64,000 nucleotides of DNA. Source: an uncultured Planctomycetaceae bacterium (lineage in GTDB: Bacteria > Planctomycetota > Phycisphaerae > SM23-33). Positions 42,993 through 58,805 of the stretch are shown piece after piece. Numbering within the stretch: the first letter of the stretch is position 1; every line of letters starts with the position of its first letter. The notes under the pieces were generated by a model, which made no database searches, was not told where the DNA came from, and was given only the letters and a program-made list of their open reading frames with translations. Location of the stretch: the NCBI GenBank assembly GCA_964401385.1, contig CAYNYF010000005.1, forward strand, positions 5,810 through 69,809, in the 5' to 3' direction. The translations under genes and the position numbers were made by a program.

Positions 42993-43721
42993 CTACCTTG
43001 CCCGCAGCAGGCGGGCGAAGGCCAGGGCGGCTGCGACGCCCGGCCACAGGGCCCAGGCCCAGATCGGCGCGGGATGCCAGGAGGCGCTCCTGGCGGCGGC
43101 GACCGAATACGCACAGGTCGCCGGCCCGGCCGAGAAGAGCCAATCGGGCGGGACGCCCCTGCCGGTCACCTCGGTCAGCACGTAATAGGTCACGGGCATG
43201 CCAACGGCAATGAGGGCGGCGGCCAGGGCGGCGGCGGTCGTGGTGGCGGCGCGGCCTTGGGCCACCCACAAGCTTAGCCCCCACGCCGCCATCGCCACGC
43301 CCGTCAGGTACAGCAGGCCGCGGACGACGTCCCCGGCCGTGGCGTCCGACAGCCACGCGGCGGCCACGTAAAGCGGCGCCGAGGCCACCAGCAGCATCAC
43401 GTACTCACCGGCCGCGGGAAAAATCGACGCCAGCGCGCCCTCGTCGCTCGCCGCGGACCGCCCGGCCGCGGCGGCCCTGCGCCCGAGAACCAGCGGGCAG
43501 ATCAACATCAGCAGGCCCGCCTGGGCCGCCAGCAGCACCTGCAAGGCCGGCGGGCTGGCAAAGCCCCCGCCAAAGTCTGGTTGCAGGAAGCTCTCCGGCA
43601 GCGACCCCACCGCCAGCGCCGCCACCGAGACGGCCAGGAAGACCGCCCCGGCCGGATGCCAGAACTGCACGACCTTCCCGCCGGCGGGAACATCGCCGCC
43701 CTGATCAATGGATGCTGACAT
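42993..43721 (-). CDS. Hypothetical polytopic membrane protein
   Basis: 242 aa with about 6 hydrophobic helices. Immediately downstream of ftsQ, overlapping it by about 17 bp. Confidence 0.45.
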   Translation of the reverse strand: MSASIDQGGDVPAGGKVVQFWHPAGAVFLAVSVAALAVGSLPESFLQPDFGGGFASPPALQVLLAAQAGLLMLICPLVLGRRAAAAGRSAASDEGALASIFPAAGEYVMLLVASAPLYVAAAWLSDATAGDVVRGLLYLTGVAMAAWGLSLWVAQGRAATTTAAALAAALIAVGMPVTYYVLTEVTGRGVPPDWLFSAGPATCAYSVAAARSASWHPAPIWAWALWPGVAAALAFARLLRAR

Positions 43722-44646
43722 GGAGTTTTTCGAAGCGGAGATCGATCCAGTCCTTCACGCCGGCCAGCTTGCCGCCGTTGGAGGCGACGTAGGCGTCCAG
43801 GTTGGCCAGTTTGGCCTCCGGGGCCAGGCAGTAGTCCAGCCCGTCCTCGGCCGGAAAACGCCCGAAGAGAACCCGCGTCCGCCGCGACTGGCCGAGCTGG
43901 GCGTAGAACTGGAGGTGCGGGTCCATCGGGCTGATGCGCCCGTTGTGATTGCGGACGTCGATGACGCTGATCTGACCTTGCCACGCCCGGCCCTTCAGCA
44001 GGCTGAGCAGGCGCAGGCCCTTATCCAACTCCGGGGCGTCCCACTTCTGCCCCGGCCGCGGCGGTAGCGTGCCCACGCCGTCGATCTTGACGAAGGCGTC
44101 CTGGCGAACCTGATTGGCCCGCAGCGGCAGCACCACGCCGCCGGCGTCGACCACGTGAAATTCGCCCGGCCGATCCTCGACCGCCACCAGCGCCGCCGGC
44201 CGGCGGAACTCGGCCTCGATCACGACCGTGCCGTCATGGTGCTTGCGGACGCAGCGTACCTTCGCGATCCAGGGGTGCTCGGCGGCGGCATCGTAAACGT
44301 CCTTCGCCAAGCTCTCGTCGAAGACGCTGCGCCCGGACACTTTGGCCTGAACGCGTGACAGGACACTGCGGACAGCGTACGGCGGCAGGTCCATCGGGCG
44401 CTCGGCCAGCCGCACGCGCGCGGACTTTCCGGCGTACTCCGGCGAGGCCAGCACACTGCTCCGCATGCCCCACAGCGCCAGCGCCGCCAGCGCCGCCACC
44501 GTCAACACGGCCGAAGCCTTGACGGCCTTGGCCTTGTGCGGCCAGGGCGGGTGCGACGGCTTGACCTGGGCTTTCGCCCGATCCTTCTTCTTTTTCTTCC
44601 TTCGCAGCACCAGCGGTAACCTCCCTGTTCCGGCCGGCACAGGCAA
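43705..44646 (-). CDS. ftsQ: Cell division protein FtsQ-like (POTRA domain)
   Basis: Basic cytoplasmic N-terminus, single TM, periplasmic POTRA-like domain. Sits directly downstream of ddl in the dcw cluster. Confidence 0.7.
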   Translation of the reverse strand: MPVPAGTGRLPLVLRRKKKKKDRAKAQVKPSHPPWPHKAKAVKASAVLTVAALAALALWGMRSSVLASPEYAGKSARVRLAERPMDLPPYAVRSVLSRVQAKVSGRSVFDESLAKDVYDAAAEHPWIAKVRCVRKHHDGTVVIEAEFRRPAALVAVEDRPGEFHVVDAGGVVLPLRANQVRQDAFVKIDGVGTLPPRPGQKWDAPELDKGLRLLSLLKGRAWQGQISVIDVRNHNGRISPMDPHLQFYAQLGQSRRTRVLFGRFPAEDGLDYCLAPEAKLANLDAYVASNGGKLAGVKDWIDLRFEKLHVSIH

Positions 44647-44658
44647 CCCGTGCCCGGC

Positions 44659-45645
44659 TCACGCCCCACCGGGCAACCTGTTCAGGGCCAACTGCACGAT
44701 CCGGTCGCAGAGCTGCTCGAAGCTGACGTTCGCGGCCGCGGCCGCCTTCGGCAGCAGCGAGTGAGACGTAAAGCCGGGAATCGTGTTGACCTCCAGCACG
44801 TGGGCGACGCCGGCCGGGGTAAGGATGAAGTCCACCCGGCTGAAGTCCCGACAGCCCAATGCCTTATGGGCAGTGACCGCGGCCGCCCGGAGGTGCTCGA
44901 CCACGGCCGGCGGCAACTGCGTGTCCACGATGTACTCCGTGGCGTCGTCCTCGTACTTGGCGACGTAGTCGTAGAACTCCCGCGCGGGGCGAATCTCGAC
45001 CACCGGCAGCGGCCTGTCGGCCAAGATGCCGACGGTCATCTCCCGCCCCTCGATGAACGCCTCGACCATTGCCCTGCCGTACCGGGCCAGCAGCCCTTCC
45101 AGGGCCGCGTCGCGGCTGGCGTCGTCGCGGGCGATGATGACGTCCACGCTGGAGCCGCCATCGACGGGCTTGAGCACGCACGGCGGCGGCACGCCCGCCA
45201 GCAGCCCACCCCAGTCCGGCGGCGAAAGCCCCCCGTCGACCACCACCCAATCCGGCGTCGCCAGCCCCGCCCGGCGGAACAGCCGCTTGCTGGCGTCCTT
45301 GTCCATCGCCAGCTCCGAGGCGGACGGGCCGGAGCCCACGTACCTCAGGCCCCGCTGCTCGCACAGCCGCTGGACCTGGCCGTTCTCGCCGAAGGCCCCG
45401 TGCACGGCGATGAACACCATCTCGATGCCCTCGCGGTCCAGGGCGGCGGTGTCTTCGGGGCCGACGTCGGCGGCGGTGACCCGGTGCCCGCAGCGCCGCA
45501 GCGCCTCGGCCACGGCTCGGCCGGACAGCAACGATACCTCGCGCTCGCTGCCGGGCCCACCCATGAGCACGGTGATGTCCAGCGGGCGGGTTCTACGGCC
45601 CGCCACGTCGATGGCGCCTTGGGCTGCGAGGGGCTCTGCCGGCAT
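44659..45645 (-). CDS. ddl: D-alanine--D-alanine ligase
   Basis: VLMGGPGSEREVSLLSG ... ATP-grasp motifs. Confidence 0.9.
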   Translation of the reverse strand: MPAEPLAAQGAIDVAGRRTRPLDITVLMGGPGSEREVSLLSGRAVAEALRRCGHRVTAADVGPEDTAALDREGIEMVFIAVHGAFGENGQVQRLCEQRGLRYVGSGPSASELAMDKDASKRLFRRAGLATPDWVVVDGGLSPPDWGGLLAGVPPPCVLKPVDGGSSVDVIIARDDASRDAALEGLLARYGRAMVEAFIEGREMTVGILADRPLPVVEIRPAREFYDYVAKYEDDATEYIVDTQLPPAVVEHLRAAAVTAHKALGCRDFSRVDFILTPAGVAHVLEVNTIPGFTSHSLLPKAAAAANVSFEQLCDRIVQLALNRLPGGA

Positions 45646-45648
45646 GGC

Positions 45649-46533
45649 TCACCAGACCTCCACTTCCAGTTCCAGATACACTTCCCAGCGCTTGTAGACG
45701 TCCTCGCGGATGATGTTGATCAGTTTCAGCACGTCGGAAGCCCGCGTCCCCGGGTCAGCGATGATGAAGTTGGCGTGCCTGTCCGAGACCTGTGCCCCGC
45801 CGGTGCGGCGGCCCTTCAGGCCGGACTTGTCGATCAGGGCCCCGGCCGACAGGCCCCGGGGGTTCTTGAAGATGCAGCCGGCGCTGCGGACCCACAGCGG
45901 CTGGGTGTTCTTCTTGTAGATCCAGATACGTTTGACCTGGTTGAGGATCCTGCGCGGGTCGTCGGGCATCAGCCGAAACTGGGCGCCGAGGATGACCTTG
46001 GCGGAGATGTTGGTGTGGCGGTAGCCGAAGACCAGCTCCCCGCGGAGGCGGGTGAAGCCGACGCCGTCGCTGTCCATCAGGTCGACCGACTCGACCATGT
46101 TGCCGATGTCGCCGAAGGCCCCGCCGGCGTTCATCCGTACCGCCCCGCCGATGCTGCCGGGGATGCCGGCCAGGCATTCCATTCCGCTCATCCCCTCCCG
46201 CACCGAGCGCAGCACTATCCGGTGCAGCTCGGCCGCCGCCCCCGCCTCCACGCCGTCCTTAGTGAAGCGCACCCGCCCGAACGTCTCGCCGGCCAGACGC
46301 ACCACCGCCCCGCGTACGCCGGAATCGTCGATCAGAAGGTTCGCCCCGCCGCCCAGGATGCGCACGGGAACCTCGTTCTCCCGGCAGCGCCGGAGCACCT
46401 CCGCCAACTGCTCCGGCGTGGTCGGCTCGATGAAGTACTGCGCCGGCCCGCCGATGCGCATCCACGTATACGAGGCCAGCGGCACTTCCGTCTTAACGAT
46501 CTGTTCCAAGCCAGCGAACAATGTCATCCGCAA
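45649..46533 (-). CDS. murB: UDP-N-acetylenolpyruvoylglucosamine reductase
   Basis: FAD-binding RIGGPAQYF...ILGGGANLL and C-terminal MurB domain. Confidence 0.9.
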   Translation of the reverse strand: MRMTLFAGLEQIVKTEVPLASYTWMRIGGPAQYFIEPTTPEQLAEVLRRCRENEVPVRILGGGANLLIDDSGVRGAVVRLAGETFGRVRFTKDGVEAGAAAELHRIVLRSVREGMSGMECLAGIPGSIGGAVRMNAGGAFGDIGNMVESVDLMDSDGVGFTRLRGELVFGYRHTNISAKVILGAQFRLMPDDPRRILNQVKRIWIYKKNTQPLWVRSAGCIFKNPRGLSAGALIDKSGLKGRRTGGAQVSDRHANFIIADPGTRASDVLKLINIIREDVYKRWEVYLELEVEVW

Positions 46534-47935
46534 CTTCCCAGATGTTGCCCGCCCCCATGGTTACCACCAGGTCGCCCGGGGCCAGAGAGGCCTTCAGGTG
46601 TCGGCTGATCGACTCAAAGCTGTTCCGGTAGACCGCGTCGCCGCCGTTGAGGCGAATCTGAGCGACCAGGTCTTCGGCGGAGATGTATTCCTTTTCGCGC
46701 TCGCTGTCGCGGACGAAGTAGATGTCCGGGACGATGACGCGGTCGGCGGCGCCGAAGCTGCGGGCGAAGTCCTTCAGCAAGAAGCGCGTGCGCGAGTGCT
46801 GGTGCGGCTGGAAGACGCACCAGATCCGCTGCGGCAGGAAGAACTCGCGAATGGCCCGCAGCGTCACCTGGATCTCGGTGGGGTGGTGGGCGTAGTCGTC
46901 GACCACGGTGACGCCGCCGAGGGCGGCCTTGATGGTGAGCCGGCGATACACGCCCTCGAAGCCGGCGACGGCCTTCGCGATCTGGGCGGGGCTGAGCCCG
47001 GCCTGATGCAGCAGCCCGGCCGCCGCCAGGGCATTATAGACTTGGTGCAGCCCGGGAAGCTGAAGCGCCATCCTGCAAAAGCGCTTTCCGCCCAGCAGCA
47101 CGTCGAACCGGAAGCGGCCGCGGTCGGCCCTCAAGTTGCTCGCCCGCCACAGCGGGTCGTCCTCCACGCCGAACGTCTGCACCTCGCAGGTTGCCTCGCG
47201 CACCGCCTGCATGACGTTGCGGTCGTCGCCGTTGGCCATCAGCAGCCCGCGGGCGGGCAGCTTGGACGCGAACGCCCGGAAGGCCTCCACGATGGCGGCA
47301 ATGTCGGCATAGCAGTCCAGGTGGTCCTCCTCGATGTTCAGAATGGCCGCGTACATCGCGGAGAGGTTCAGGAAGGAGCGGTCGAACTCGCAGGCCTCGG
47401 CGACGAAATGCCGGCCCGCGCCGACGCCGCTGGGCCCGCCGAGCTGGGCGACGGTCGCCCCGATGATGAAGGACGGGTCCATGCCCGCCGACGCCAGGGC
47501 GTAGGCGACCAGGGCCGTGGTGGTGGACTTTCCGTGGGTGCCGGCGACGGCGATGCCGCAGCGGTCGCCCATCAGCCGCCCCAACATCTGGCTATACTTG
47601 ATCACCTCCGCCCCGCGCTGCCGAGCGGCCAGCAGCTCCGGGTTGGCCTCGTGAATCGCGGCCGAGTACACCACCAGGTCCAGCTTCTCCGGCAGGTTCT
47701 CCGCCCGCTGGCCCACGGTCACGCCGGCCCCGTGAGCGGCCAAGTCCTGTAGCGCGGCCGAGTCGGCCTGGTCGGAGCCGCTGACGGTCGCCCCGCGGGC
47801 CAGAAGCATCCTCGCCAGGGCGCGCATGCCCGATCCGCCCATGCCGATCAGGTGCACCCGCCGGCGGAGATACTTGGCCTCGGCCACCCCGGCGGCGGCG
47901 AATGTCCTCCGCTCAGTTTCCATCGGTCTCAGCAT
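46493..47935 (-). CDS. murC: UDP-N-acetylmuramate--L-alanine ligase
   Basis: HLIGMGGSGM and VAGTHGKSTTT P-loop; Mur ligase C-terminal domain. Confidence 0.9.
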   Translation of the reverse strand: MLRPMETERRTFAAAGVAEAKYLRRRVHLIGMGGSGMRALARMLLARGATVSGSDQADSAALQDLAAHGAGVTVGQRAENLPEKLDLVVYSAAIHEANPELLAARQRGAEVIKYSQMLGRLMGDRCGIAVAGTHGKSTTTALVAYALASAGMDPSFIIGATVAQLGGPSGVGAGRHFVAEACEFDRSFLNLSAMYAAILNIEEDHLDCYADIAAIVEAFRAFASKLPARGLLMANGDDRNVMQAVREATCEVQTFGVEDDPLWRASNLRADRGRFRFDVLLGGKRFCRMALQLPGLHQVYNALAAAGLLHQAGLSPAQIAKAVAGFEGVYRRLTIKAALGGVTVVDDYAHHPTEIQVTLRAIREFFLPQRIWCVFQPHQHSRTRFLLKDFARSFGAADRVIVPDIYFVRDSEREKEYISAEDLVAQIRLNGGDAVYRNSFESISRHLKASLAPGDLVVTMGAGNIWEVADDIVRWLGTDR

Positions 47936-48000
47936 AGTAGTTACTCACACACGTCCCTGTCAAACTCGCCCAACCGCCACTCTCGTTGCAGCTTTCGGCC

Positions 48001-48060
48001 TCCCGCTTTCAGTTTTCAGCTTTCAGCTTTGCCCTTCGCTCTTCGTCTTTTTCAAATCGC
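48001..48060. repeat. Dispersed intergenic repeat: GCTGAAA-heptad element (copy 1, inverted orientation) in the murG/murC gap
   Basis: gctttcagttttcagctttcagctttg is the reverse complement of the 53131-53160 copy. Similarity extends about 45 bp: gacgaagagcgaagggcaaagctgaaagctgaaaactgaaagc vs cacgcgagaaggagacaaagctgaaagctgaaaactgaaagc. Confidence 0.6.
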
Positions 48061-48088
48061 GCGGACTTTGACAAAGCCCGCGTAGTAC

Positions 48089-49219
48089 TTATCGCCCGGT
48101 GGAGGAATTTTGCTTTAGCCCGGTCAACCAGCGGGCGACGGCTTCGGCCGCGCCGGGGCGGGCGAGCGCCTCCGCGGCCGAGCGCATCGCCTCCAACCGC
48201 GACGGGTCCCGCAGGATCGGCAGCAGGGCCTCGCGCAGCGCCTGGGCGTTGAGTGCCCGGTCGCGGGCATCGATCACCTCCACGGCCGCGCCGGCCGATA
48301 CTAAGGCGGCGGCGTTGTGGCGCTGGTGCTGGTCGCGGTGATACGGATACGGCATGAGCACGGCCGGAGTGGCGGTGGCGGTCAGCTCGGCCACGGTCGA
48401 TGCCCCCGCTCGACTGAGCACGACGTCGGCCAGGGCGTAGGCAAGGTCCATCCGCTGGCAGAACTCCAGCAGCGTCCACCGCATCCTGCTGCCGGCGAGG
48501 GCCGCCCGCACTTCGTCGGCCTTGCCCGGCCCGGCCACGTGCAGGAGCTGCCAGCCAGCGGCCAGCTCGTCCAGGTCGTCCACGATTTCGGCGACCGCCT
48601 GATTGATGTTGGCGGCCCCCTGGCTGCCGGCGGCGACCAGCAGGGTTTTGCGATCACCGCCCAGCGACCACAGCTTCCGGCCCTCGGCCGGATCGCCCCG
48701 CACCAACGCCTGCCGCACGGGACAGCCCACCAGCCGCGATTTGGCTCCGCCGCGGCCAAGGTCGGCCGCCGTCCGCTCGAACTGCGTAAAGATCACCCCC
48801 GCCCGCCGGGCCAGGTGGCGGTTGGCCGCGCCGGCCACGGCGTCGATGCAGAGCAGGCCCGTTCGCACGCCGGCGCGAGCGGCCGCGCGGACCACCGGAA
48901 CGGCGGCGAATCCGCCCAGCCCCAGCACCGCCGCCGGACGGACGTCGGCCAGCAACTCGCCGGCCAGCCGCGCCGACGACACCCAGCGACGCAGGAACTT
49001 TCCCCAGCCGCGCAGGCCGCGCGGCGGCGGGCAGATCGGCTGGGCGACGAAGGCATACGGCGTGGAGGAGAGGATCCGCCGGTCAATGTCGCGATCCGAG
49101 CAGGCGAAGACGATCTGGGCGTCGCCCTGCATCTCCAGCAGCCGCTCGACCACGGCCAGGGCCGGATACAGGTGCCCGCCGGTGCCCCCCCCGGCGAAGA
49201 TGTACGCTGGTCGGCTCAT
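48089..49219 (-). CDS. murG: Undecaprenyldiphospho-muramoylpentapeptide beta-N-acetylglucosaminyltransferase
   Basis: IFAGGGTGGHLYPALAV N-terminal motif; GT28 fold. Confidence 0.9.
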   Translation of the reverse strand: MSRPAYIFAGGGTGGHLYPALAVVERLLEMQGDAQIVFACSDRDIDRRILSSTPYAFVAQPICPPPRGLRGWGKFLRRWVSSARLAGELLADVRPAAVLGLGGFAAVPVVRAAARAGVRTGLLCIDAVAGAANRHLARRAGVIFTQFERTAADLGRGGAKSRLVGCPVRQALVRGDPAEGRKLWSLGGDRKTLLVAAGSQGAANINQAVAEIVDDLDELAAGWQLLHVAGPGKADEVRAALAGSRMRWTLLEFCQRMDLAYALADVVLSRAGASTVAELTATATPAVLMPYPYHRDQHQRHNAAALVSAGAAVEVIDARDRALNAQALREALLPILRDPSRLEAMRSAAEALARPGAAEAVARWLTGLKQNSSTGR

Positions 49220-49297
49220 GCACCACCACGGGCGGCCGCCAACGGAATCGCCAGGCGCAGGCCGGATTCCGGCGGGCGGCGCGACATTTGTGCTCCG

Positions 49298-50464
49298 TCA
49301 TTCATTGGCCATCAGGCGTTCGGCGCTCGTCATTTTCTTGCGCGCGCTCACTGAGACGATCATGGCCGTCGCCGCCGACATTGCCAGCAGCGAACTCCCG
49401 CCGGCCGAGACGAACGGCAGCGACACGCCGGTCGGCGGCAGGCACACCGCGTTCACGGCGACGTGCATGACCGCCTGCAAGCCGATGAGGAAGCCGAGCC
49501 CTCCCGCGAGCAGGGCGCCGAGGCGATCGCCGGCCGTCCGCGCCGCCCGATACGCCAGCAGCAGCCAGACCAGCAGCAGGGCGATGACCACCCCCGCCCC
49601 GATCGCGCCCAGCTCCTGGCAGATCATGGCGAAGATGAAGTCGGTGCCGGCCTCGGGCAGATATCCGTACTTCGCCACCCCGCCGCCGACCCCGGCCGGC
49701 GCCGCCCCGGAGGCGACGGCGATCAGGGCCTGCCGCGGCTGGTAGGCCGACGGGTTGGTCGTGCTGAACGGATCCCAGAAGGCCGTGATCCTCGCCCACC
49801 GGTGCGGGTCGCAGACGACGAACTTATAGAAGCCGGCGGCGGCGAGCGGCAGCAGGGCCAGCACGTACAGCCACGGCACGCCGCCCATCAGCAGCAGCAC
49901 GGCCGAGGCGATGGCGATGATCGCGGCCGTGCCGAAGTCCTGCGTGACCACCAGCGCGATGCCCAGCCCGATCAGCCCAACGGCCGGCAGGAACGTCCGA
50001 GTGAAACTCCGCGGGCGGACGCCCGGGCGGCTGAGCAGTCCCGCCAGAAAGACCAGCACACCGAACTTGAGCACCTCGGAGGGCTGAAACCCCACCGGGC
50101 CGAACTGGAGGAAACGCAGCGTCCCGCGGATGTCTCTGCCGAACACCAGCACCGCCGCGGCGCTGCAAAGGCCAACGACCAGCAGCGCTTCGGCCGGCGT
50201 GGGCAGCCGTCGGCCCCAGGGCCGGCGGACAAGCCAGCGATAGTCCAGCCGCCACAGCAGCAGGAGCAGCAGCAGCCCGCTGGTCGCGAAGAGTAGTTGC
50301 CGGACATCGCGGCGATAGTACCACTTCGCCCCGGCCGCCGTTGGGAAGGAGGTGCTGAAGACCATCACCGCCCCCAGGGCCATCAACGCCAGCGTCGTCA
50401 GGATCAGGGCCTCGCCGCCCGGGTTGTCCCGCAACGCGATCCGTCCAGGCTTTCCGCCTTCCAT
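49298..50464 (-). CDS. ftsW: SEDS-family peptidoglycan glycosyltransferase (FtsW/RodA)
   Basis: 10-TM SEDS protein with the conserved C-terminal loop. Confidence 0.85.
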   Translation of the reverse strand: MEGGKPGRIALRDNPGGEALILTTLALMALGAVMVFSTSFPTAAGAKWYYRRDVRQLLFATSGLLLLLLLWRLDYRWLVRRPWGRRLPTPAEALLVVGLCSAAAVLVFGRDIRGTLRFLQFGPVGFQPSEVLKFGVLVFLAGLLSRPGVRPRSFTRTFLPAVGLIGLGIALVVTQDFGTAAIIAIASAVLLLMGGVPWLYVLALLPLAAAGFYKFVVCDPHRWARITAFWDPFSTTNPSAYQPRQALIAVASGAAPAGVGGGVAKYGYLPEAGTDFIFAMICQELGAIGAGVVIALLLVWLLLAYRAARTAGDRLGALLAGGLGFLIGLQAVMHVAVNAVCLPPTGVSLPFVSAGGSSLLAMSAATAMIVSVSARKKMTSAERLMANE

Positions 50465-50508
50465 GGCGTCCTCCAGAACGCGAATTCGAGCAAATCACGA
50501 GAAGAAAC

Positions 50509-50538
50509 AGAACGCGAACTCGCGCGAATTCGCGTTCT
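50509..50538 (-). promoter_or_regulatory. Hairpin (10-bp stem agaacgcgaa/ttcgcgttct) overlapping the mraY stop, followed by a U-rich tract on the transcript
   Basis: Inverted repeat read from the sequence. A direct partial repeat cgcgaattcg lies nearby at about 50478-50490. Confidence 0.35.
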
Positions 50539-51659
50539 CAGCGGAGTTTCAGCGTCGCCAAAGCCACGGCCGCGCACAGGATGCCCAGCAGCCAGAAGCG
50601 GACCACCACCTTGGACTCCGCCCAGCCGGCCAGGTGGAAATGATGATGGACCGGTGCACAGCGGAACAGCCGCCGGCCGCCGGTGCCCTTGAAATACAGA
50701 ATCTGCATCAGCACGCTGACGGCTTCCATGACGAACACGCCGCCGGCGAGGAACAGCATCAGCTCGTGCCGGGTGACCACGGCGATGTAGCCGATCAGCC
50801 CCCCCAGCGGCAGCGAGCCGGTGTCGCCCATGAACACCTGCGCCGGCAGGCAGTTGTACCACAAGAACCCCACGCAGGCGCCGACCATGGCCGCGCACAC
50901 CACCGTCAGCTCCGCCGCCTCCGGCACGAAGGGCAGGCGGAAGACGTTGGCCCAATCGTGCACGCCGGCCACCCACGCCAACACCAGAAACACGCCGGTG
51001 ACCATGACCATGCAGCCGCCGGCCAGCCCGTCCATGCCGTCGGTGAGGTTGACGGCGTTGGAGGAACCGGTGATGACCAACACCCCGATGATCACGAACG
51101 CCAGCAGCGGCAGGTGCAACGGCTGGGCCCGGAAGGGGAAGTAAAAGTTCTGGACGGCGTTGATGAGTCTGCCATCGTAGTCCTCGTAGAAGCTCTCGCG
51201 CCCGTGGCTGTAGATGAAGATGGTCAGCAGCACCCCCAAGCAGACCTGGAAGACGATCTTCTCCCACATCTTCAGCCCGTCGCGGGTGGAGCCTTCGCCG
51301 CTGCCGGGGCGGCCTTGGCGCAGCTTGAACCAGTCGTCGAAAGCCCCCACCCCCCCCAGCCAGATCAGGGCGAACAACGCCAGCCGCACGTACATGCTGT
51401 CCAGGTCTGCCAGCAGCAGCGTGCTCAGAAAGATCGCCAGCACGATCAGGGCGCCGCCCATGGTGGGCGTGGCCGACTTGTGGCGGGTCAGCTCGTTCAG
51501 GGCGGCGTGGTCGAACTCCGGGCGGTCGCCCAGCTTCTTGCGAATCAGGAAGCGGATCATCCGCGGGCTCAGCAGCACCACCACCAGAAAGCTCACCACG
51601 GCCGCGCACACCATCCGCAGGATCAACTGCGTCCCGCCGAAAAGCAGGTCGGTCAGCAC
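50538..51659 (-). CDS. mraY: Phospho-N-acetylmuramoyl-pentapeptide transferase
   Basis: PTMGG motif and other MraY-family blocks. Confidence 0.9.
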   Translation of the reverse strand: MLTDLLFGGTQLILRMVCAAVVSFLVVVLLSPRMIRFLIRKKLGDRPEFDHAALNELTRHKSATPTMGGALIVLAIFLSTLLLADLDSMYVRLALFALIWLGGVGAFDDWFKLRQGRPGSGEGSTRDGLKMWEKIVFQVCLGVLLTIFIYSHGRESFYEDYDGRLINAVQNFYFPFRAQPLHLPLLAFVIIGVLVITGSSNAVNLTDGMDGLAGGCMVMVTGVFLVLAWVAGVHDWANVFRLPFVPEAAELTVVCAAMVGACVGFLWYNCLPAQVFMGDTGSLPLGGLIGYIAVVTRHELMLFLAGGVFVMEAVSVLMQILYFKGTGGRRLFRCAPVHHHFHLAGWAESKVVVRFWLLGILCAAVALATLKLR

Positions 51660-53074
51660 TTGGGCTTTGCCTTTCTGGTCTTGCCCGCCCGCCTAGCGGG
51701 GGCGAAGGCCGCCTGAATTTTGCCTACCAGCCGCTCCATCCCCATCGCCCGGGAGCCCTTGAGCAGGACGACGTCGCCGCTCTTGAGCATCTTCGGCAGC
51801 CTCCTGCACGCGGCCTCGACGGAGGCGATCTGCTCTGTCTGGACGTTGTCGCCCGCGGCCGCGGCGGCGATCTGCCGGCCCAGCGGACCCACCCCCACGA
51901 GCAGGTCCACCCGGCAGCGGGACAGCGCCTCGCCGGCGGCCCGATGCAGCTCGTCGCTTCGCGGGCCCAGCTCCAGCATGTCGCCGGCGACGATGACGCG
52001 GCGCTTGCCGGGGAAGCTCGCCAGCGTCTCGCCGGCCGCCAGCAGCGAGGCCGGATTGGCGTTGTAGGCGTCGTTGACGATGGTGACCGCGCCGGCGGGT
52101 ACCCGCTCCAGCCGCATTTCCAGGCCGGTGTAATCGCCCAGGGCCTCGGCCGCCGCCCGCGGGTCCATGCCGAACCGCTGAGCGACCCCGATCGCTGCAA
52201 GGGCGTTGAGGGCGTTGTGCTTGCCCGGCACCGACAGCTCCGCCCACGTCCGGCCGTTCAGCTCGAAGCGGCACCGGCCGTCGCCGGCCTCATAGCCGGT
52301 CAGGCGCAGCTCGGCCGAGTCGCTCTCGCCGAAGCCCACCCGCCGCACGTCGTAGGCACGCACTGCCCGTTCCAGCGGCTCGCTGTCGGCCCAGATCACG
52401 CCCAGGCCGGATGGACCCAACCCCCCAAGAATCGCCGCCTTCTCGGCCGCGATGTGCTCCAGGTCCATCAGCTTCTCCAGGTGCGTCTCAGCCACCGAGG
52501 TGATCACGGCCACGTCCGGGCGAACGATGCCCGTCAGGGCGGCGATCTCACCGGGGGCGTTGGAGCCGATCTCGCAGATGACGTAATCGTCGTCGGCGGC
52601 CGCGTCGAATATCGTCAGCGGCACGCCCACGTCGTTGTTGAAGCTCTTGGGCCCGGCGCGGCCTTTGAGCCGCCGGGAGAGAATCCGGTCGATCATGCCC
52701 TTGACGGTGGTCTTCCCGTTGGAGCCGGTCACGCCCACGAAGCTCGCGGCCAGGTGTTGCCGGACCGACCCCGCCAGCTTGCCCAGCGCTACCCGGGTGT
52801 CGGCGACGCCGACCACGCCGCCGGCGAACCACCCCATGACCTGCTCGTCCAGGGTCGCGCCGAAGTCCACCACGGCCGCGACGCAGCCAGCCGCGGCGGC
52901 CTGCGGCAGGAAGTCGTGCCCGTCGAAGTTCGGCCCGCGCAGGGCGAAGAACACGTCGCCGGCCCGGGCCGTGCGCGAATCGACTGAGACGCCCTCGATC
53001 GGCACCATCTCCGCCGGCGAGCGCCACCCGCCGCGAACCGCCCCTCGAAGCTCTTCCGGCATCAACCGTCGCAT
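51653..53074 (-). CDS. murF: UDP-N-acetylmuramoyl-tripeptide--D-alanyl-D-alanine ligase
   Basis: VTGSNGKTT P-loop; Mur ligase domains. Confidence 0.9.
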   Translation of the reverse strand: MRRLMPEELRGAVRGGWRSPAEMVPIEGVSVDSRTARAGDVFFALRGPNFDGHDFLPQAAAAGCVAAVVDFGATLDEQVMGWFAGGVVGVADTRVALGKLAGSVRQHLAASFVGVTGSNGKTTVKGMIDRILSRRLKGRAGPKSFNNDVGVPLTIFDAAADDDYVICEIGSNAPGEIAALTGIVRPDVAVITSVAETHLEKLMDLEHIAAEKAAILGGLGPSGLGVIWADSEPLERAVRAYDVRRVGFGESDSAELRLTGYEAGDGRCRFELNGRTWAELSVPGKHNALNALAAIGVAQRFGMDPRAAAEALGDYTGLEMRLERVPAGAVTIVNDAYNANPASLLAAGETLASFPGKRRVIVAGDMLELGPRSDELHRAAGEALSRCRVDLLVGVGPLGRQIAAAAAGDNVQTEQIASVEAACRRLPKMLKSGDVVLLKGSRAMGMERLVGKIQAAFAPARRAGKTRKAKPKC

Positions 53075-53099
53075 GATCGTCGCTATATCCTACCCCGCC

Positions 53100-53232
53100 C
53101 TCGGAAAACTTTACACGCGAGAAGGAGACAAAGCTGAAAGCTGAAAACTGAAAGCTGAAAAAAGCCAAACGGTCCGTTACGCTCGCGTCGTCTTTCAGCT
53201 TTTAGCTTCTAGCTTTCAGTTTTCATTTTTCC
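53100..53232. repeat. Composite inverted-repeat/hairpin element built from GCTGAAA heptads (copies 2 and 3) in the murE/murF gap
   Basis: Left arm aagctgaaagctgaaaactgaaagctgaaaaaag (53131-53164). Loop contains the mini-palindrome aacggtccgtt. Right arm tctttcagcttttagcttctagctttcagttttcattttt (53191-53230) abuts the murE stop. Confidence 0.6.
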
Positions 53233-54701
53233 TACGCCCCCGCCTCACCCAGCAGCTCCGCGGCGGTTTCCATGTCGTCGAAGTGGATCCGCCTGTCGCC
53301 GATGACCTGATAGTTCTCGTGGCCCTTTCCGGCGATCAGGACGACGTCGCCTTTTCCCGCCGAGGCGACGGCCGCGGCGATGGCCGACCGCCGGTCCGGC
53401 TCGACCTGCACCTGGCCGCGGGCCCGCTCGGAGAATCCGGCCATCACCTCCTCGATGATAGCCGCCGGCTCCTCGGTGCGCGGGTTGTCGGAGGTGACGA
53501 TGATGCGGTCGGCGCGCTTCTCGGCCACGGCGGCCATCCGCGGGCGCTTGGAGCGGTCGCGGTCGCCGCCGCAGCCGAAGACCAGGATCAGCTTTCCGTC
53601 CGTCAGTGGCCGCAGGGCCGAAAGAACGTTGTCCAGGGCATCGTCGGTGTGGGCGTAATCCACCATCACGTCGAAGGGCCCGGCGAAGGTTACCCGCTGG
53701 AGCCGGCCGGGGACGTAGCGAACCTCGCCCAGGGCTCCGGCGATGGCTTCCAGGTCAACGCCCAGGGCGATCGCCGCCGCCGCCGCCGCCAGGGCGTTGG
53801 CAACGTTGTGCCGCCCGATCAACTGAAGCTGCACGCCCGCCTCCCGCCCGGCGTGGACGAGAAAGAAGGTGCTGCCGGACGGCTCGATTCGCTCGATCCG
53901 GGCGTACACGTCGGCCGCGGGGCTCAGGCCGTACCAAAGGACCGGCGCGGCCGTGGCCGAGGCGATCTGCTCGGCGTAGCGGCTGTCGCGGTTGACCACG
54001 GCCCGGGCGGCGGCCGGCAGCGACTCGAACAGCCTCCGCTTGGCCGCCAGGTAGTTGGCCATGGTGCCGTGATAGTCCAAATGGTCGCCGCTGAGATTGG
54101 TGAACACGCCCACGTCGAAGTCGACCCCGGCGGTGCGGTGCTGGTCCAGGGCGTGGGAGGAGACCTCCATCACCAGGTGGGTGCCGCCGGCCCGGACCAC
54201 CTCGGCCATCATCTCCGCCAGTCGCAGCGGGTCGGGGGTGGTGGTGCCGGCGGGGGCGGAGGCGGCGATGGTGTCGTAGGCAATCGTGCCCAGCAGGGCC
54301 GCTTTTTTCCCGGACGATTCCAGGATGTGGTGCAGCAGGTAGGTGAAGGTGGTCTTGCCGTTGGTGCCGGTGACGCCGACGACGGTCAGCTTTCGCGCGG
54401 GCCAGCCGGCGATGGCCTGGGCGACCGGCCCGACGGCCCGGGCCGAGTCCGGCACGACCGCGTAAGCAACCCGAGGGCGCACGGCCGCGGCGTCTTCGCA
54501 GACCACGGCCGTGCACCCCGCCGCCACGGCTGAAGCGATGTATCGGTGGCCGTCCGTCGCCGTCCCCCGAACGGCCACAAAGCAATCTCCTTCCTGCGCC
54601 TTGCGAGAGTCCGTCACGACGCGCCGCACGTCGGCCTCGCCCCGGCGCTGCACGCCGTCCACTCCGGCCTCGGCCAGCAGTTCTGAAAAACGCATCGCCA
54701 T
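53232..54701 (-). CDS. murE: UDP-N-acetylmuramoyl-L-alanyl-D-glutamate--2,6-diaminopimelate ligase
   Basis: Start at MAMRFSELL, which aligns with the E. coli MurE N-terminus. VTGTNGKTT P-loop. DNPR / KGHE motifs near the C-terminus. The track's longer ORF up to 55055 would overlap ftsI. Confidence 0.9.
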   Translation of the reverse strand: MAMRFSELLAEAGVDGVQRRGEADVRRVVTDSRKAQEGDCFVAVRGTATDGHRYIASAVAAGCTAVVCEDAAAVRPRVAYAVVPDSARAVGPVAQAIAGWPARKLTVVGVTGTNGKTTFTYLLHHILESSGKKAALLGTIAYDTIAASAPAGTTTPDPLRLAEMMAEVVRAGGTHLVMEVSSHALDQHRTAGVDFDVGVFTNLSGDHLDYHGTMANYLAAKRRLFESLPAAARAVVNRDSRYAEQIASATAAPVLWYGLSPAADVYARIERIEPSGSTFFLVHAGREAGVQLQLIGRHNVANALAAAAAAIALGVDLEAIAGALGEVRYVPGRLQRVTFAGPFDVMVDYAHTDDALDNVLSALRPLTDGKLILVFGCGGDRDRSKRPRMAAVAEKRADRIIVTSDNPRTEEPAAIIEEVMAGFSERARGQVQVEPDRRSAIAAAVASAGKGDVVLIAGKGHENYQVIGDRRIHFDDMETAAELLGEAGA

Positions 54702-54907
54702 CTCGTTGCCGCCGGCGAGGGCGCCGACTCGCCGGCACCGGCAGGAAGACATCTTTCGAGGGCCCCAAACGCCCATCGCCCCCGCCGGGGGCGCGGCCTG
54801 CGCTTGGGGCCGTCGCTGCCCGGGCGCGGCGACACTCCGAGTGCCGCCGGCCCGGGCCAACGCTGGGACACTATTGTAACCAATCCATCGGCCCACCGGC
54901 CGAGGGG

Positions 54908-56653
54908 TCATCGCCTGACGACCTCCCCGAGCTTGTCGGGAGGGGTCTCCAGATATTCCAGGGTCTTTTCGAGCACCTCGCCGACGTAGGGGGCGGCCAC
55001 CTTGCCGCCGGTGTAGCCGGTGCTGTAGTCGGGCCGGTAGACGCTGATCACGCACACCGCCGCCGGCCGGGCGGCCGGGGCGCCGCCCACGAAGGTGGCC
55101 GTGTACGCCCGCTCCTCATAGCCGTTCGGCCCGCCGATCTGGGCGGTGCCGGTCTTGCCGAAGACCCGCCACTGGCGCAGCCGCGCCCGCTTGCCCGTGC
55201 CGCGCTCGACCACGTTGACCAGCACCTCTTCCAGGAACTGCCGTGCGACGCGGCGGCTGAGCACACGCCGGATGCGCCGGCGGCGGGACTGATACACCAG
55301 GGCTCCGTCGGCGTCGACCACGTGGTCGACGATCCGCGGGCGCAGCAGCTCCCCGCCGTTGGCGATGGCGCTGAAGGCCGTCGTCATCTGCAAGGCGGTG
55401 ACCATGATCGGCCCCTGGCCGAAGGGAAGCCGGCGGGTGGCGTAGGGCGTCCAGCGGCGGATGGACACCAGCCGTCCGGGAGACTCGCCCGGCAGGTCGG
55501 CTCCCGTGCGCCGGCCGAAGCCGAAGGCCGAGGCGATGCGGTGCAGCCGCCAATTGCCCAGGTGCTCGCCCAGCTTGGCCATGCCGATGTTGCTGGAGTG
55601 GATCACGATCTCCGCCAGCGGAAGCTGCCCGAAGTGCATACCCGGGAAGTCGCGAATCGTCCCGCCCCTGTAGGCGTGGTAGATGCCATTGTGGCAGAAG
55701 AACTCCGTGTCCAGGGCGGCGGCGTTCATCTGCACCGCCCCAGCGGCGATGAAGAGCTTGAAGCAGCTTCCCGGCTCGTACGGGTCGGTGACGGCGCGGT
55801 TGCGGCGCCGTTCGGGGGAGCTGTGGGCGTAGTCGTTGGGGTCGTAGCCGGGCGCGCAGGCGACGGCGAGGATCTCGCCGGTGTCGGGCTCCATCACCAC
55901 GCCCCAGGCGGCCGCCGCCTTATAGCGCTCGGCCAGCTCGGCCAGGGCCTGCTCCAGAAAGCCCTGTACGATCACGTCCAGTGTCAGGAAGACGTGCCTG
56001 CCGTCGACGGGCGGGCGGTAGTGCCGGAGGAAGCCGTAGCTGCCGGTTCTGGCGGCGTCGGAACCCATGACGGCGACGCCATCGCGGCTGCGGAGGTAGG
56101 AATCGGCCTGAAGCTCGATGCCGGCGCCGGCGACACCGTCGACCCGCCGAAAGCCGACCGCCTGCGCCGCCAGCGACCCGCTGGGATAGTGTCGCCGCCA
56201 CTCATGCATCAGCCCCACACCCCGCAGCTTCAGATCGCCCAGCGCCCGGGCTTGGGCGGCCGAGACGTTGCGAAGCAGGTACACGAAACGCTTGTCCCGC
56301 CGCTCGTACATCTTGCGGTACAGCTCCGCCTCGAAGCCGCCGACGGCGGCGGCGATCTTCCGCGCCGCCGATGCCAGATTGTCCGGGCCGATGAGCACCG
56401 GGTCGGCGTAGCAGGTGGGCACCTGCTTGGACCCGGCCAGGAGAACGTATCCGCCGCGGGTGCGGGCGTAGATGTTACCCGGGCGGGCGGGCAGGACCAT
56501 CACTCGCCGCTGCTGGCGGGCGGCCAGACGGGCCAGGTCGCCGCCGCCGCCGAACTGCAAGTACACCACCCGCCCGGCCAGGGCCGCGAAGGCAGCGACC
56601 AGCAGGCCGAAGAACAGGTCGAATCGCCATTTTGCCAGTTTCAGTTCGCCCAT
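54908..56653 (-). CDS. ftsI: Peptidoglycan D,D-transpeptidase (PBP3-like)
   Basis: Start at MGELKLAKWRFDLFFGLLVAAF (TM anchor). Transpeptidase SxxK/SxN/KTG-type blocks. The track ORF start 56767 is an extension. Confidence 0.85.
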   Translation of the reverse strand: MGELKLAKWRFDLFFGLLVAAFAALAGRVVYLQFGGGGDLARLAARQQRRVMVLPARPGNIYARTRGGYVLLAGSKQVPTCYADPVLIGPDNLASAARKIAAAVGGFEAELYRKMYERRDKRFVYLLRNVSAAQARALGDLKLRGVGLMHEWRRHYPSGSLAAQAVGFRRVDGVAGAGIELQADSYLRSRDGVAVMGSDAARTGSYGFLRHYRPPVDGRHVFLTLDVIVQGFLEQALAELAERYKAAAAWGVVMEPDTGEILAVACAPGYDPNDYAHSSPERRRNRAVTDPYEPGSCFKLFIAAGAVQMNAAALDTEFFCHNGIYHAYRGGTIRDFPGMHFGQLPLAEIVIHSSNIGMAKLGEHLGNWRLHRIASAFGFGRRTGADLPGESPGRLVSIRRWTPYATRRLPFGQGPIMVTALQMTTAFSAIANGGELLRPRIVDHVVDADGALVYQSRRRRIRRVLSRRVARQFLEEVLVNVVERGTGKRARLRQWRVFGKTGTAQIGGPNGYEERAYTATFVGGAPAARPAAVCVISVYRPDYSTGYTGGKVAAPYVGEVLEKTLEYLETPPDKLGEVVRR

Positions 56654-56720
56654 GCTGGCGTGCTTAGCATTCCGGTGCCGGCGCGGGGCCGGGCCGAGGG
56701 CCAAAGTTAGTTTCGCTCGC

Positions 56721-56999
56721 TCACCAGGCCGGCCGGGGCGGGCGGCGGCTGGGCCGGCGCGGCTCACCGGGGCCGGCGACGTCGATGGGCCAATCCTCGG
56801 CCAATCGGCGTATGTTCTGCGGGGCCGTCAGTTCGCCCAGTCGAAGCTGCTGGCTCCACAGCCTCCGCCGGACCTCGAGCCTCCGGCCCTCCAGGTTGCA
56901 GATGTCGGATCGTACTCGGGTTTGTTGCAGGCGGAAGCCGGCCGCGGCCGCGGCGATTGCCGCCACCGCCAGGATGATCCACGCAAAGCGCATCCTCAC
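56721..56999 (-). CDS. ftsL: FtsL/DivIC-like small bitopic division protein
   Basis: TM (AWIILAVAAIAAAAAGF) followed by a short coiled coil. Sits immediately upstream of ftsI. Confidence 0.5.
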   Translation of the reverse strand: MRMRFAWIILAVAAIAAAAAGFRLQQTRVRSDICNLEGRRLEVRRRLWSQQLRLGELTAPQNIRRLAEDWPIDVAGPGEPRRPSRRPPRPAW

Positions 57000-57014
57000 A
57001 CTCCGCCCGTCCGC

Positions 57015-57797
57015 TCACGCACCGTTGGGAATTCGCAGCCTCAGCCCCACGGGCAGGCGGTCGGGGTCGCGGATCCGATCGGGATTTGCCTCCAGCAGCT
57101 TCCGCACGGCCGACCCGGCGGACGAGCCCATCTGGCGACGGGCGATGTCGGTCAGGGTGTCGCCGGCCCGGACGACGTAGGTTCGCCCCCGCCGGAAGCG
57201 GCCCTCCAGCGCAGGCAGCGTCATCTCGGTGTAGTTCTCCCGCCGCCGCACCCCGGGCGGGGAAACCGCCCGCCGCGACGCCGCCTCCAACGGCGGGATC
57301 AGAAGCACCTGGCCGACACCCACCTGCGAGGCGCTCGGCAGCTTCTCGCGATTGGCCGCGAAGATGCGGAGGTGCTCCCTTTCGTGCTCGCGCCCGTAAA
57401 CCTTCCGGGCGATCCGGATGAGCGTGTCTCCCGCCACCACCGTGTACGTCCGCGCCGGCCGAGCGGGCTGCACCGGGGGCGTCCGCTCCGGCGGCTGCGG
57501 GAGGTCCTGGCGGGCGACCAGGCTGGGCAGGCGCAAAGAGCCGTCCCCACGGTTGGCCTGATCGGAAGCCGGCGGAGGCGCAGTTTGCGCGGCAAGCTCG
57601 GGGGCATCGTCGCGGTGGTCCATCGAGGCGGCGGCCAGCTCCGGGCCAGTCAGTTGCGGCGGGGGCACGACGCCGGGGGGCGGCTGGCGGCTGGCGCTCT
57701 CGGCCGCCAGTCTCAAACTCCTCTGGCCGAGGACCATGCCGAAAAGAGCAATGAACGCCAGACCAACCAGCAGTGCGACGCGTCTGTCCCGTTTCAT
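57015..57797 (-). CDS. Membrane-anchored protein with two LysM domains
   Basis: N-terminal TM, Pro-rich linker, LysM repeats YTVVAGDTLIRIARKVYG and YVVRAGDTLTDIARRQMG. Confidence 0.75.
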   Translation of the reverse strand: MKRDRRVALLVGLAFIALFGMVLGQRSLRLAAESASRQPPPGVVPPPQLTGPELAAASMDHRDDAPELAAQTAPPPASDQANRGDGSLRLPSLVARQDLPQPPERTPPVQPARPARTYTVVAGDTLIRIARKVYGREHEREHLRIFAANREKLPSASQVGVGQVLLIPPLEAASRRAVSPPGVRRRENYTEMTLPALEGRFRRGRTYVVRAGDTLTDIARRQMGSSAGSAVRKLLEANPDRIRDPDRLPVGLRLRIPNGA

Positions 57798-57896
57798 GAC
57801 AGCAGGCTCCGTCCCAGGCGGGTCAGGCAGGTGCCGTCCGGGGGCGACCCGTCGGCGTCCGGGGCCCGACGGGTGAGAACCTGCTCTGACCAGCGA

Positions 57897-58793
57897 CTAC
57901 TGAATCCTTTCCAGTGTGCGAAGTTTCGCCGAGCGGCTTCGCGGGTTACGTGCGACCTCGTCTCGACTCGGCGTCAGCGGTTTGGGCGTCAACAGCCGGT
58001 GCGTGCCGGCCTCGGCGGCCGCGGCAAAACATCGCTTCACCAGCCGGTCCTCCAGCGAGTGAAAGCTGATGACGGCCGCCCGCCCGCCGACGCTCAGAAG
58101 CTGCGGCAGCCGCTCCAGCAGCCGCTGGAGGTTTTCCAGCTCGCCGTTGACGGCGATGCGGATGGCCATGAAGGTCCGCGTGGCCGGGTGGATCCGCCCA
58201 CGCCCGGGGCGGGCGCGACGGACCGCGCCGGCGACGATCCAGGCCAACTCCGCCGTGCGGCAGATCCGCTCCCGCCGGCGGGCACGCACGATGGCGCGGG
58301 CAATCCGCCGGGCGTGGCGCTCCTGGCCGTAGCGGCTGATGAGATCGGCAAGGGCGACCTCGCCGGCGGTGTTGACCAGGTCCTCGGCCGTCGGGCCCCG
58401 CCGCCGCATCCGCATGTCCAGCGGCCCGTCGAGCTGGAAGCTGAATCCACGCTCCGGGTCGGCCAACTGGGTCGAGGAGACGCCCAGGTCGGCCACCGCC
58501 GCGTCGACCGAGGCCACCTCGGCCTCGGCCAGTACCGCCTCCAGCTCGGCGAAGTTGGCCTCGAACAGCCGGACACGCGCGCCAAACCGCGCTAAACGCT
58601 CTTTGGTTTTCAAAAGATTGGACTCGTCCAGATCGACGCCGATCAGCCTTGCGGCCGGGCCCGCCGCCTCCAGCAGCGCTTCGGCGTGCCCTCCCAGCCC
58701 AACCGTGCAGTCGACGATGGTTCGCCGGCCCGCGGGGGCCAGGTGCCGCACGACCTCATCGAGCAATACAGGAAAATGGCCGGCATCGTCCAT
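57897..58793 (-). CDS. rsmH: 16S rRNA (cytosine1402-N4)-methyltransferase
   Basis: HFPVLLDEV...DCTVGLGGH SAM motif; 298 aa. Confidence 0.9.
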   Translation of the reverse strand: MDDAGHFPVLLDEVVRHLAPAGRRTIVDCTVGLGGHAEALLEAAGPAARLIGVDLDESNLLKTKERLARFGARVRLFEANFAELEAVLAEAEVASVDAAVADLGVSSTQLADPERGFSFQLDGPLDMRMRRRGPTAEDLVNTAGEVALADLISRYGQERHARRIARAIVRARRRERICRTAELAWIVAGAVRRARPGRGRIHPATRTFMAIRIAVNGELENLQRLLERLPQLLSVGGRAAVISFHSLEDRLVKRCFAAAAEAGTHRLLTPKPLTPSRDEVARNPRSRSAKLRTLERIQ

Positions 58794-58805
58794 GACGCCG
58801 GCCCT

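Follow-up and report, generated by a model that had tools for sequence, protein, structure and literature searches.

Introduction

In many genomes no class of long simple repeat is as common as the heptanucleotide, for which slippage of the polymerase has been put forward as the cause (Mrazek et al. 2007, as cited in PMC4679880 and PMC4692102); the same two papers also cite tandem heptanucleotides in Calothrix PCC 7601. As far as our search went, neither the GCTGAAA unit nor Planctomycetota figure in these general surveys. In Xanthomonas, GGGAATC heptamers are intergenic, mostly of about four units and near the upstream open reading frame (ORF), with no function found for them; 70 of the 186 patterns occur in convergent inverted pairs, 7-8% lie in divergent as against 16% in convergent regions, and the repeats differ in length and sequence between close species (PMC4692102). 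Nostoc PCC 7120 carries GGGGA(T/C)T repeats, with one GGGGATT array inside an operon (pecE-pecF) (Rehm et al. 2015, PMC4692102). The TAACTGA direct repeats of marine Beggiatoaceae, Cyanobacteria and Bacteroidetes, for which a translational role has been proposed, stand in sets a few nucleotides upstream of start codons, with one indirect repeat among 170 sets (MacGregor 2015, PMC4679880). Here we describe arrays of another heptad, GCTGAAA, in the dcw (division and cell wall) cluster of an uncultured Planctomycetaceae bacterium (assembly GCA_964401385.1, contig CAYNYF010000005.1, positions 5,810 to 69,809; this whole stretch of 64,000 nucleotides is called the window below). The arrays occupy the murG-murC spacer (gap A) and the murE-murF spacer (gap B). 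They are a heptanucleotide simple repeat, recent and dispensable, that changes by whole units, and the pair in gap B is a strong predicted hairpin. We consider it probable that they belong to the known class of bacterial intergenic heptanucleotide repeats, as recent, slippage-born passengers of tolerant spacers and not as a conserved control device. A literature search on the GCTGAAA/NCTGAAA unit gave only unrelated eukaryotic papers, and we found no paper describing the motif.

Two other kinds of intergenic element invite comparison. The repetitive extragenic palindromic sequences and bacterial interspersed mosaic elements (REP/BIME) of enterobacteria, for example at malE-malF, are imperfect palindromes of about 35 nt with a conserved head, mobilised by RAYT (REP-associated tyrosine transposase) and present in hundreds of copies; as intercistronic hairpins they can stabilise the upstream message or attenuate read-through. 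The Correia elements of Neisseria, which are miniature inverted-repeat transposable elements (MITEs), are bounded by defined terminal inverted repeats, duplicate a TA at the target and share a conserved interior; when co-transcribed they form an RNase III-sensitive hairpin.

Heptad arrays in two spacers of the dcw cluster

An exact 23-mer, GCTGAAAGCTGAAAACTGAAAGC, occurs in two copies in the window, at 48005-48027 on the minus strand and at 53133-53155 on the plus strand, and had no match in 100 shuffles. The identity between gap A and one arm of gap B extends to exactly 27 nt, CAAAGCTGAAAGCTGAAAACTGAAAGC (48005-48031 and 53129-53155), and the repeat unit is a head-to-tail heptanucleotide, (R)CTGAAA / GCTGAAA. 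Tandem Repeats Finder reported period-7 arrays at 47989-48030 (6.0 copies), 53130-53160 (4.4 copies) and 53192-53216 (3.6 copies); the 64 kb contain no other period-7 array of at least three copies, and all three lie in the dcw cluster. The spacers, their bounding genes and the arrays are as follows.

46493-47935, minus strand: murC, with its ATG at 47935 (480 aa in all relatives)
47936-48088: gap A, between murG and murC, 153 nt
47989..48031, minus strand: gap A array in mRNA sense, with a perfect CAAAG(CTGAAAG)(CTGAAAA)(CTGAAAG)C at 48005-48031
down to 47989, minus strand: degenerate part of the gap A array, three units (CGGGAGG CCGAAAG CTGCAAC) after the perfect ones
48089-49219, minus strand: murG
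51653-53074, minus strand: murF, with its ATG at 53074 (relatives of 473-474 aa begin MRRLMPEEL)
53075-53231: gap B, between murE and murF, 157 nt
53129..53163, plus strand: gap B 3' arm, CAAAG(CTGAAAG)(CTGAAAA)(CTGAAAG)(CTGAAAA), with 27 nt identical to the gap A array
53164..53191, minus strand: gap B loop, 28 nt, with the palindrome AACGGTCCGTT at 53168-53178; the mRNA strand contains AACGGACCGUU
53192..53226, minus strand: gap B 5' arm, a degenerate sense array (AUGAAAA CUGAAAG CUAGAAG CUAAAAG CUGAAAG) 6 nt past the murE stop
53232-54695, minus strand: murE, with its start at 54695 and its stop codon at 53232-53234

The start codons of murC, murF and murE were set by comparison with relatives. 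Both sites lie between genes and not far past the end of the upstream ORF, with the gap A array beginning 57 nt beyond the murG stop. From the end of the sense array to the next start codon there are about 70 nt in gap A (murC ATG) and about 125 nt in gap B (murF ATG). On the mRNA the gap B 3' arm is antisense and reads UUUUCAG CUUUCAG UUUUCAG CUUUCAG CUUUG. Gap A holds a single sense array with no inverted partner, and its predicted fold is not centred on the array.

A sequence-only reading of this locus had described a repeat in two dcw gaps, inverted in the murG-murC gap and forming an inverted pair in the murE-murF gap. The 23-mer match supports the two sites and their orientation, and the pair is indeed present, since a third, degenerate array at 53192-53226 on the minus strand pairs with the second. 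The mur gene identities given there agree with our family scans and with the relatives, and the gap size of about 155 bp fits both spacers. The same reading had proposed a conserved element of about 45 bp in an otherwise tightly packed operon; what is shared comes down to the 27 nt plus a loosely similar purine-rich flank, and other spacers of the cluster measure 212 nt (ftsI-murE), 341 nt (mraZ-rsmH), 99 nt (rsmH-LysM), 78 nt (ftsW-murG) and 73 nt (mraY-ftsW).

Comparison with relatives

We compared the locus with a close relative, represented by population contigs L121-L124 (ENA ERZ272568xx) at 94-95.5% nucleotide identity, and with distant Phycisphaerae (L236-L241) at 70-80% protein identity (74-80% for MurC). 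Flanks and gene order are collinear between the window and relatives. In gap A the close relative keeps the array as CAAAG(CTGAAAG)2CTGAAAA, followed directly by GGGAGTGG, so that the window is longer by 21 nt, exactly three heptads, and differs by G/A substitutions as well. Gap B differs far more, and two segments of it can be told apart.

53133..53231, minus strand: indel segment comprising the whole hairpin, with 2 nt in its place in L121 (BLAST break points 53232|53132)
53075..53132, minus strand: remaining gap B spacer, 58 nt, with 91% identity to L121 and absent in the distant relatives

The L121 gap B reads TAG-CA-TTTGCCGCG-TTCTCGCG..., and alignment revealed no target-site duplication at the empty-site junctions TAGGA|AAAATG... 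/ ...TTTCAGC|TTTG. In the distant relatives the murE-murF gap is 14 nt, which we take as ancestral. No heptads were found in gap A of the relatives with 74-80% MurC identity, nor any NCTRRRR array in about 75 kb of dcw-region sequence of the distant Phycisphaerae. Since the close relative differs and the distant relatives are without heptads, both elements must be young, and neither is a conserved part of the operon. For this locus, the picture would be one of young, variable passengers in an essential operon and not of a conserved intra-operon regulator.

The contig is derived from a metagenome, in which repeats can misassemble, and several arrays at other loci sit at contig ends, so an assembly artefact, or a chance similarity, has to be weighed. 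Against this stand the lack of any match in the shuffles, the independent presence of the gap A array in three contigs of the related population, the collinear flanks and a hairpin shorter than a sequencing read, and we find an artefact or chance hardly credible.

The presence of the hairpin in one population and its absence from a close relative, together with its inverted arms and the 27-nt identity of two sites in opposite orientation, could also suggest a REP/MITE-like mobile element with heptad arrays as its terminal repeats, and in the relative a mobile-looking PDDEXK_3 cassette does occupy a different spacer of the cluster. However, the empty site shows no target duplication, the loop (53161-53192) occurs only once in the window and nowhere in 260 fetched loci, and similar hairpins elsewhere have unrelated loops. 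The arms, moreover, consist of simple tandem units of variable number, and gap A has a single array where an inverted pair would be expected. We therefore regard mobility of this kind as very improbable, and the REP/MITE label attached to the repeat by the sequence-only reading is not supported, for the unit is not a palindrome, the target is not duplicated and the interior is shared with none of the loci compared. That reading had named uniqueness to the two sites and lack of conservation, together with RNA-seq coverage free of a discontinuity, as evidence against its element; the repeat is indeed confined to these two sites in the window and unconserved in relatives, yet the heptad array itself is very common elsewhere.

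The hairpin in the murE-murF spacer

For the 103-nt element at 53129-53231, the mRNA strand is predicted to form 38 pairs, with -40.1 kcal/mol and z = -6.2 relative to shuffles, in line with the imperfect hairpin of about 100 nt, with a mini-palindrome in its loop, that had been read from the letters. For the whole of gap B the predicted fold is -54.2 kcal/mol (z = -3.4 against shuffles). No Rfam family matched at its gathering threshold anywhere in the window, both gaps included, and the sole sub-threshold match here (34 bits, where 100 are required) is with a hairpin model of plant miRNA precursors and reflects shape alone.

Because the inverted pair is strong on the mRNA strand, an effect on the intra-operon mRNA is possible. 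The hairpin could thus be a selected, REP/BIME-like intercistronic RNA element that protects the upstream mraZ-murE message from 3' exonucleases, is cleaved by RNase III or terminates transcription in part, and so sets the murE:murF ratio. Its strength and its start only 6 nt past the murE stop would suit such a role; a terminator scan detected its apical stem and U6, pairs of the same polarity elsewhere lie at gene 3' ends (between convergent genes in three of five cases), and an insert at a junction that was ancestrally 14 nt must change the coupling of the two genes. However, the apical stem, which is the only terminator-like feature in gap B, is weak (6 pairs, 3 of them G-C). It is followed by GCUUUUUU at 53185..53166, with a tail that enters the 3' arm, and the full fold places the U tract among the paired bases of the long stem. 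The essential murF, mraY, ftsW and murG follow the hairpin, and a scan of gap B found no promoter-like site, so that efficient termination there is excluded. Its absence from a relative of about 95% identity counts further against selection, and we consider an intercistronic element of this type rather unlikely, though it is the alternative to which we would give most weight. Whatever its effect, the locus offers a natural experiment, in which two populations of about 95% identity differ by a 97-nt hairpin of -40 kcal/mol placed 6 nt past the murE stop.

Over 27 nt the gap A array is also perfectly complementary to the gap B 3' arm, situated 5.1 kb nearer the 5' end of the same polycistronic mRNA. 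A duplex of the two is predicted at -46.8 kcal/mol, against -32.8 kcal/mol for the local arms, and according to this energy model a long-range pairing of gap A with gap B on one mRNA could form.

The heptad beyond this genome

To place the unit in a wider setting, one genome per species was scanned with the pattern CTGAAANCTGAAANCTGAAA, which gave at least 120 stretches (L001-L120). The matches listed come from Acidobacteriota, Planctomycetota, Bacteroidota, Verrucomicrobiota, Chloroflexota and others, at 31-73% GC. The exact 23-mer was found in 111 metagenome stretches with unrelated flanks (L125-L235), and a GCTGAAA array in 21 IMG/VR contigs. Among the matches listed for L001-L120, period 7 is by far the commonest tandem period (411 of 1100 Tandem Repeats Finder rows), and the seventh base is mostly uniform within an array (90 AAA, 76 CCC, 39 TTT and 23 GGG triplets), a homogeneity that is expected from slippage.

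Mixed patterns being rare in the genome sample, the G,G,A,G order of the 23-mer could have been taken for a specific conserved element. We rejected this because it is a minority form of the all-G array, with 2 cases against 24 in the viral contigs, or roughly 8% of arrays. The apparent majority of arrays with exactly four units was likewise set aside, four units being the shortest length that the search could catch. Horizontal transfer was considered for a 34-nt identity between the gap B 5' arm and the unrelated metagenome contig L136, and was rejected since by a rough estimate the identity is compatible with chance, there being few purine-transition variants of the unit.

Inverted pairs are frequent in the fetched loci and occur in two polarities, with unrelated loops. 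Pairs of the form TTTCAG..CTGAAA (n=23) fill the stop-to-start spacer of co-directional genes in 12 of the 13 cases with both neighbours callable. Those of the form CTGAAA..TTTCAG (n=12), the polarity of gap B, lie at gene 3' ends, and three of the five with both neighbours called are between convergent genes; for both polarities the numbers are small and the gene calls home-made. We dropped the idea that inverted pairs mark divergent promoters, as the divergent context is the rarest (6 of 139).

Some individual loci deserve mention. In L127, an unrelated metagenome contig, the 23-mer (3902-3924) lies about 20 nt upstream of rpmJ (translation MKVRSSVKRICEHC...); in L136 it lies upstream of an aspartate-kinase-like start (MSVVVMKF), lysC, and in L139 upstream of GGAGG and an ATG. 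These positions in gene leaders recall the TAACTGA repeats of ribosomal-protein operons. In four viral contigs (L244, L247, L252, L255) one and the same stretch of about 1160 nt has a (GCTGAAA)3 array at either end, the two in inverted orientation, and the flanks are identical.

Probable origin of the arrays and tolerance of the spacers

The surroundings of gap A bear on the question of why the array is tolerated there. Directly downstream of murG, and upstream of murC, two features frame it.

48061..48081, minus strand: post-murG hairpin, GCGGGCUUUG-U-CAAAGUCCGC, right after the murG stop, as read from the sequence
47934..47963, minus strand: sigma-70-like promoter, TTGACA-N18-TACTAT, overlapping the murC ATG (10 of 12 matches, none in shuffles)

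Relatives carry another GC-rich hairpin at the post-murG position. In five lineages, with MurC identity as low as 74%, the putative murC promoter motif, GTTTGACAG-N17-TAC(C/T)ATGC, does not vary, whereas the bases that separate and flank its hexamers drift. The -10-like hexamer overlaps the annotated murC ATG, and a second in-frame ATGG 12 nt further down is also invariant (47920-47935). This conservation suggests an internal promoter at murC, perhaps giving a near-leaderless murC from the second ATG. The array stands 3' of the post-murG hairpin and 5' of the putative promoter, that is, between the murG hairpin and a conserved motif, and the stretch it occupies thus appears tolerant of insertions. 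Lying upstream of the putative internal promoter, the array would be transcribed only through read-through from murG, and it probably has no measurable effect.

Under the reading that we prefer, of recent passengers born by slippage, arrays would arise and change through replication slippage, whole units at a time, and the inverted pair of gap B could have come from local inverted copying or from gene conversion between arrays. Both would have settled, within roughly species-level divergence, in two dcw spacers that tolerate extra DNA. During transcription the gap B pair would fold into a stem-loop of 38 bp whose 5' arm is rich in A and whose 3' arm is rich in U; such a hairpin would be at most a modest barrier to 3' exonucleases, an RNase III target or a leaky attenuator, loosening the ancestrally tight murE-murF junction. 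The 27 nt shared by the gap A array and the gap B 3' arm include the G,G,A,G order, which is missing from gap A of the relative, and we infer that copying or conversion links the two; chance is not negligible given that G,G,A,G occurs in roughly 8% of arrays.

Several observations weigh against this preference for neutral slippage. The heptad recurs across phyla from 31 to 73% GC, and the only arrays within the 64 kb lie in the dcw cluster. The 27-nt identity of gap A and gap B, unlike the gap A of the relative, points to copying between sites and not to independent growth. Arrays of other heptads show an excess of TGA: in all fetched loci, 236 such arrays more than 300 nt away from any CTGAAAN array contain TGA in 52% and CTGA in 24% of cases, where our own uniform-composition estimates would give about 20% and 5.5%. 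There is also an orientation bias, as the genes flanking CTGAAA-oriented arrays are co-directional sense in 69 cases, co-directional antisense in 39, convergent in 25 and divergent in 6; these gene contexts rest on home-made ORF calls, concern gene orientation only and involve small numbers. The calls were filtered by codon position because shadow ORFs in high-GC DNA distort orientation. Distances from arrays to ORF starts were unusable, since CTGAAA arrays carry TGA in all three frames and so pull the first start codon alongside. Taken together, the recurrence, the TGA enrichment and the orientation bias hint at selection or a trans-acting factor over pure slippage.

The arrays could accordingly be binding sites of a trans-acting factor, which might be the ribosome, a protein that binds RNA or a regulator that binds DNA. 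The TAACTGA repeats of Beggiatoaceae have been interpreted in this way, and the dcw copies would then tie cell-wall genes to the network of that factor. Consistent with this are the occurrence of the heptad in many phyla, the single nucleotide that separates AAACTGA from TAACTGA, the sense-strand bias in co-directional regions (69 against 39), the arrays just 5' of a Shine-Dalgarno sequence and ATG (for example at rpmJ in L127, lysC in L136 and a gene in L139) and the TTTCAG..CTGAAA pairs that exactly fill stop-to-start spacers. The arrays of the window, however, are about 70 and 125 nt away from the next start codon, and that of gap A lies 5' of the putative murC promoter. They are unconserved in relatives, the seventh base changes freely, as do many other heptads, and no candidate factor came to light; published studies of similar repeats saw no pattern of function (PMC4679880, PMC4692102). 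On balance, we judge such binding sites improbable at this locus, though a trans-acting factor may be at work in the family at large. A link with MraZ, a protein that binds direct repeats, was dropped because such arrays also occur at unrelated loci in other phyla.

A bolder version would make (NCTGAAA)n a cross-phylum, strand-specific family of RNA "punctuation", read by a conserved factor such as RNase III, the ribosome or an RNA-binding protein, in which heptads are selected for UGA and the murE-murF hairpin is a fresh working copy that uncouples two cell-wall genes. We hold this to be quite unlikely. If it were true, TTTCAG..CTGAAA pairs would fill intra-operon spacers and CTGAAA..TTTCAG pairs would mark gene 3' ends, and the 27-nt complement in the murG-murC gap could pair with the murE-murF hairpin over 5 kb of the same mRNA.

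The wider NCTGAAA pattern bears on the long-standing puzzle of the bacterial preference for 7-nt repeats. In Acidobacteriota, Planctomycetota, Bacteroidota, Verrucomicrobiota and others it combines two pair architectures, differing gene contexts and TGA-enriched heptads.

Other features of the dcw cluster

According to NCBIfam and Pfam scans, the dcw cluster runs on the minus strand as mraZ, rsmH, a LysM-protein gene, ftsI, murE, murF, mraY, ftsW, murG, murC, murB and ddl, and the MurF and MurC homologues place the host in Planctomycetota, class Phycisphaerae. The cluster spans 42993-59605, with the LysM-domain protein gene between rsmH and ftsI; murD does not lie between mraY and ftsW, and neither ftsA nor ftsZ follows ddl. 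Planctomycetota are expected to be without FtsZ. The two ORFs 3' of ddl (313 and 242 aa) had no family match in the NCBIfam and Pfam scans. Two of the distant relatives, L236 and L237, have the same dcw layout as the window.

The ftsI-murE spacer (54696-54907, minus strand, 212 nt) contains a block at 54851-54869 that is conserved in five Phycisphaerae lineages and reads GUCCCAGCGUUGGCCCGGG ... CGGCACUYGGAGUGCCGCC ... CCCGGGCWGCGA ... GAUAUCCUCCUGCC, with counterparts at L236:3265-3423, L237:3355-3559, L239:5159-5526 and L241:8307-8480. It comprises an invariant long-range helix, an inner hairpin and an inserted stem of variable length, with compensatory changes in 8 of 36 predicted pairs. The block has no Rfam match and could be an undescribed leader RNA or the promoter region of murE.

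In the mraY-ftsW gap (50465-50537) we observed a palindrome, AGAACGCGAATTCGCGCGAGTTCGCGTTCT, and a third copy of the GAACGCGAATTCG motif. In the relative of about 95% identity (L121:3742-4343), the AGAACGCGAATTCGCGCGAGTTCGCGTTCT and GAACGCGAATTCG motifs flank a 141-aa PDDEXK_3 gene inserted at the exact mraY-ftsW site, which makes this insertion a second presence/absence polymorphism in a dcw spacer. Antisense to ftsW, at 50025-50129 on the plus strand, the type I hammerhead ribozyme model matched below its gathering score of 34 (22.6 bits, E = 0.077), probably by chance.

Comparison with known systems

The arrays of the window resemble the heptamers of Xanthomonas and Nostoc in several respects: they are tandem 7-nt units, intergenic and proximal to the upstream ORF, they include an inverted pair that gives a stem-loop, and they vary between close relatives. 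They differ in that the Xanthomonas and Nostoc units are G-rich and form G-quadruplexes, which the A-rich GCTGAAA cannot do, and in the phylum of the host. The resemblance to the TAACTGA repeats is closest in the unit itself, which is one base apart (AAACTGA = CTGAAAA); the two also share stops in all three forward frames with an open reverse strand, an intergenic position, short sets of 2-6 units and a patchy distribution across phyla. However, the arrays of the window are far from start codons, and one is an inverted pair.

If an effect on RNA is real, the murE-murF hairpin would be like REP/BIME in its action as an intercistronic hairpin, but its arms are tandem heptads in place of a palindromic unit, and the gap A copy is without an inverted partner. 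Like the Correia elements it is a small insert that codes for nothing, has inverted ends and is found in some strains but not in others, whereas those elements possess defined terminal repeats, a target duplication and a conserved interior, none of which was seen in the hairpin of the window.

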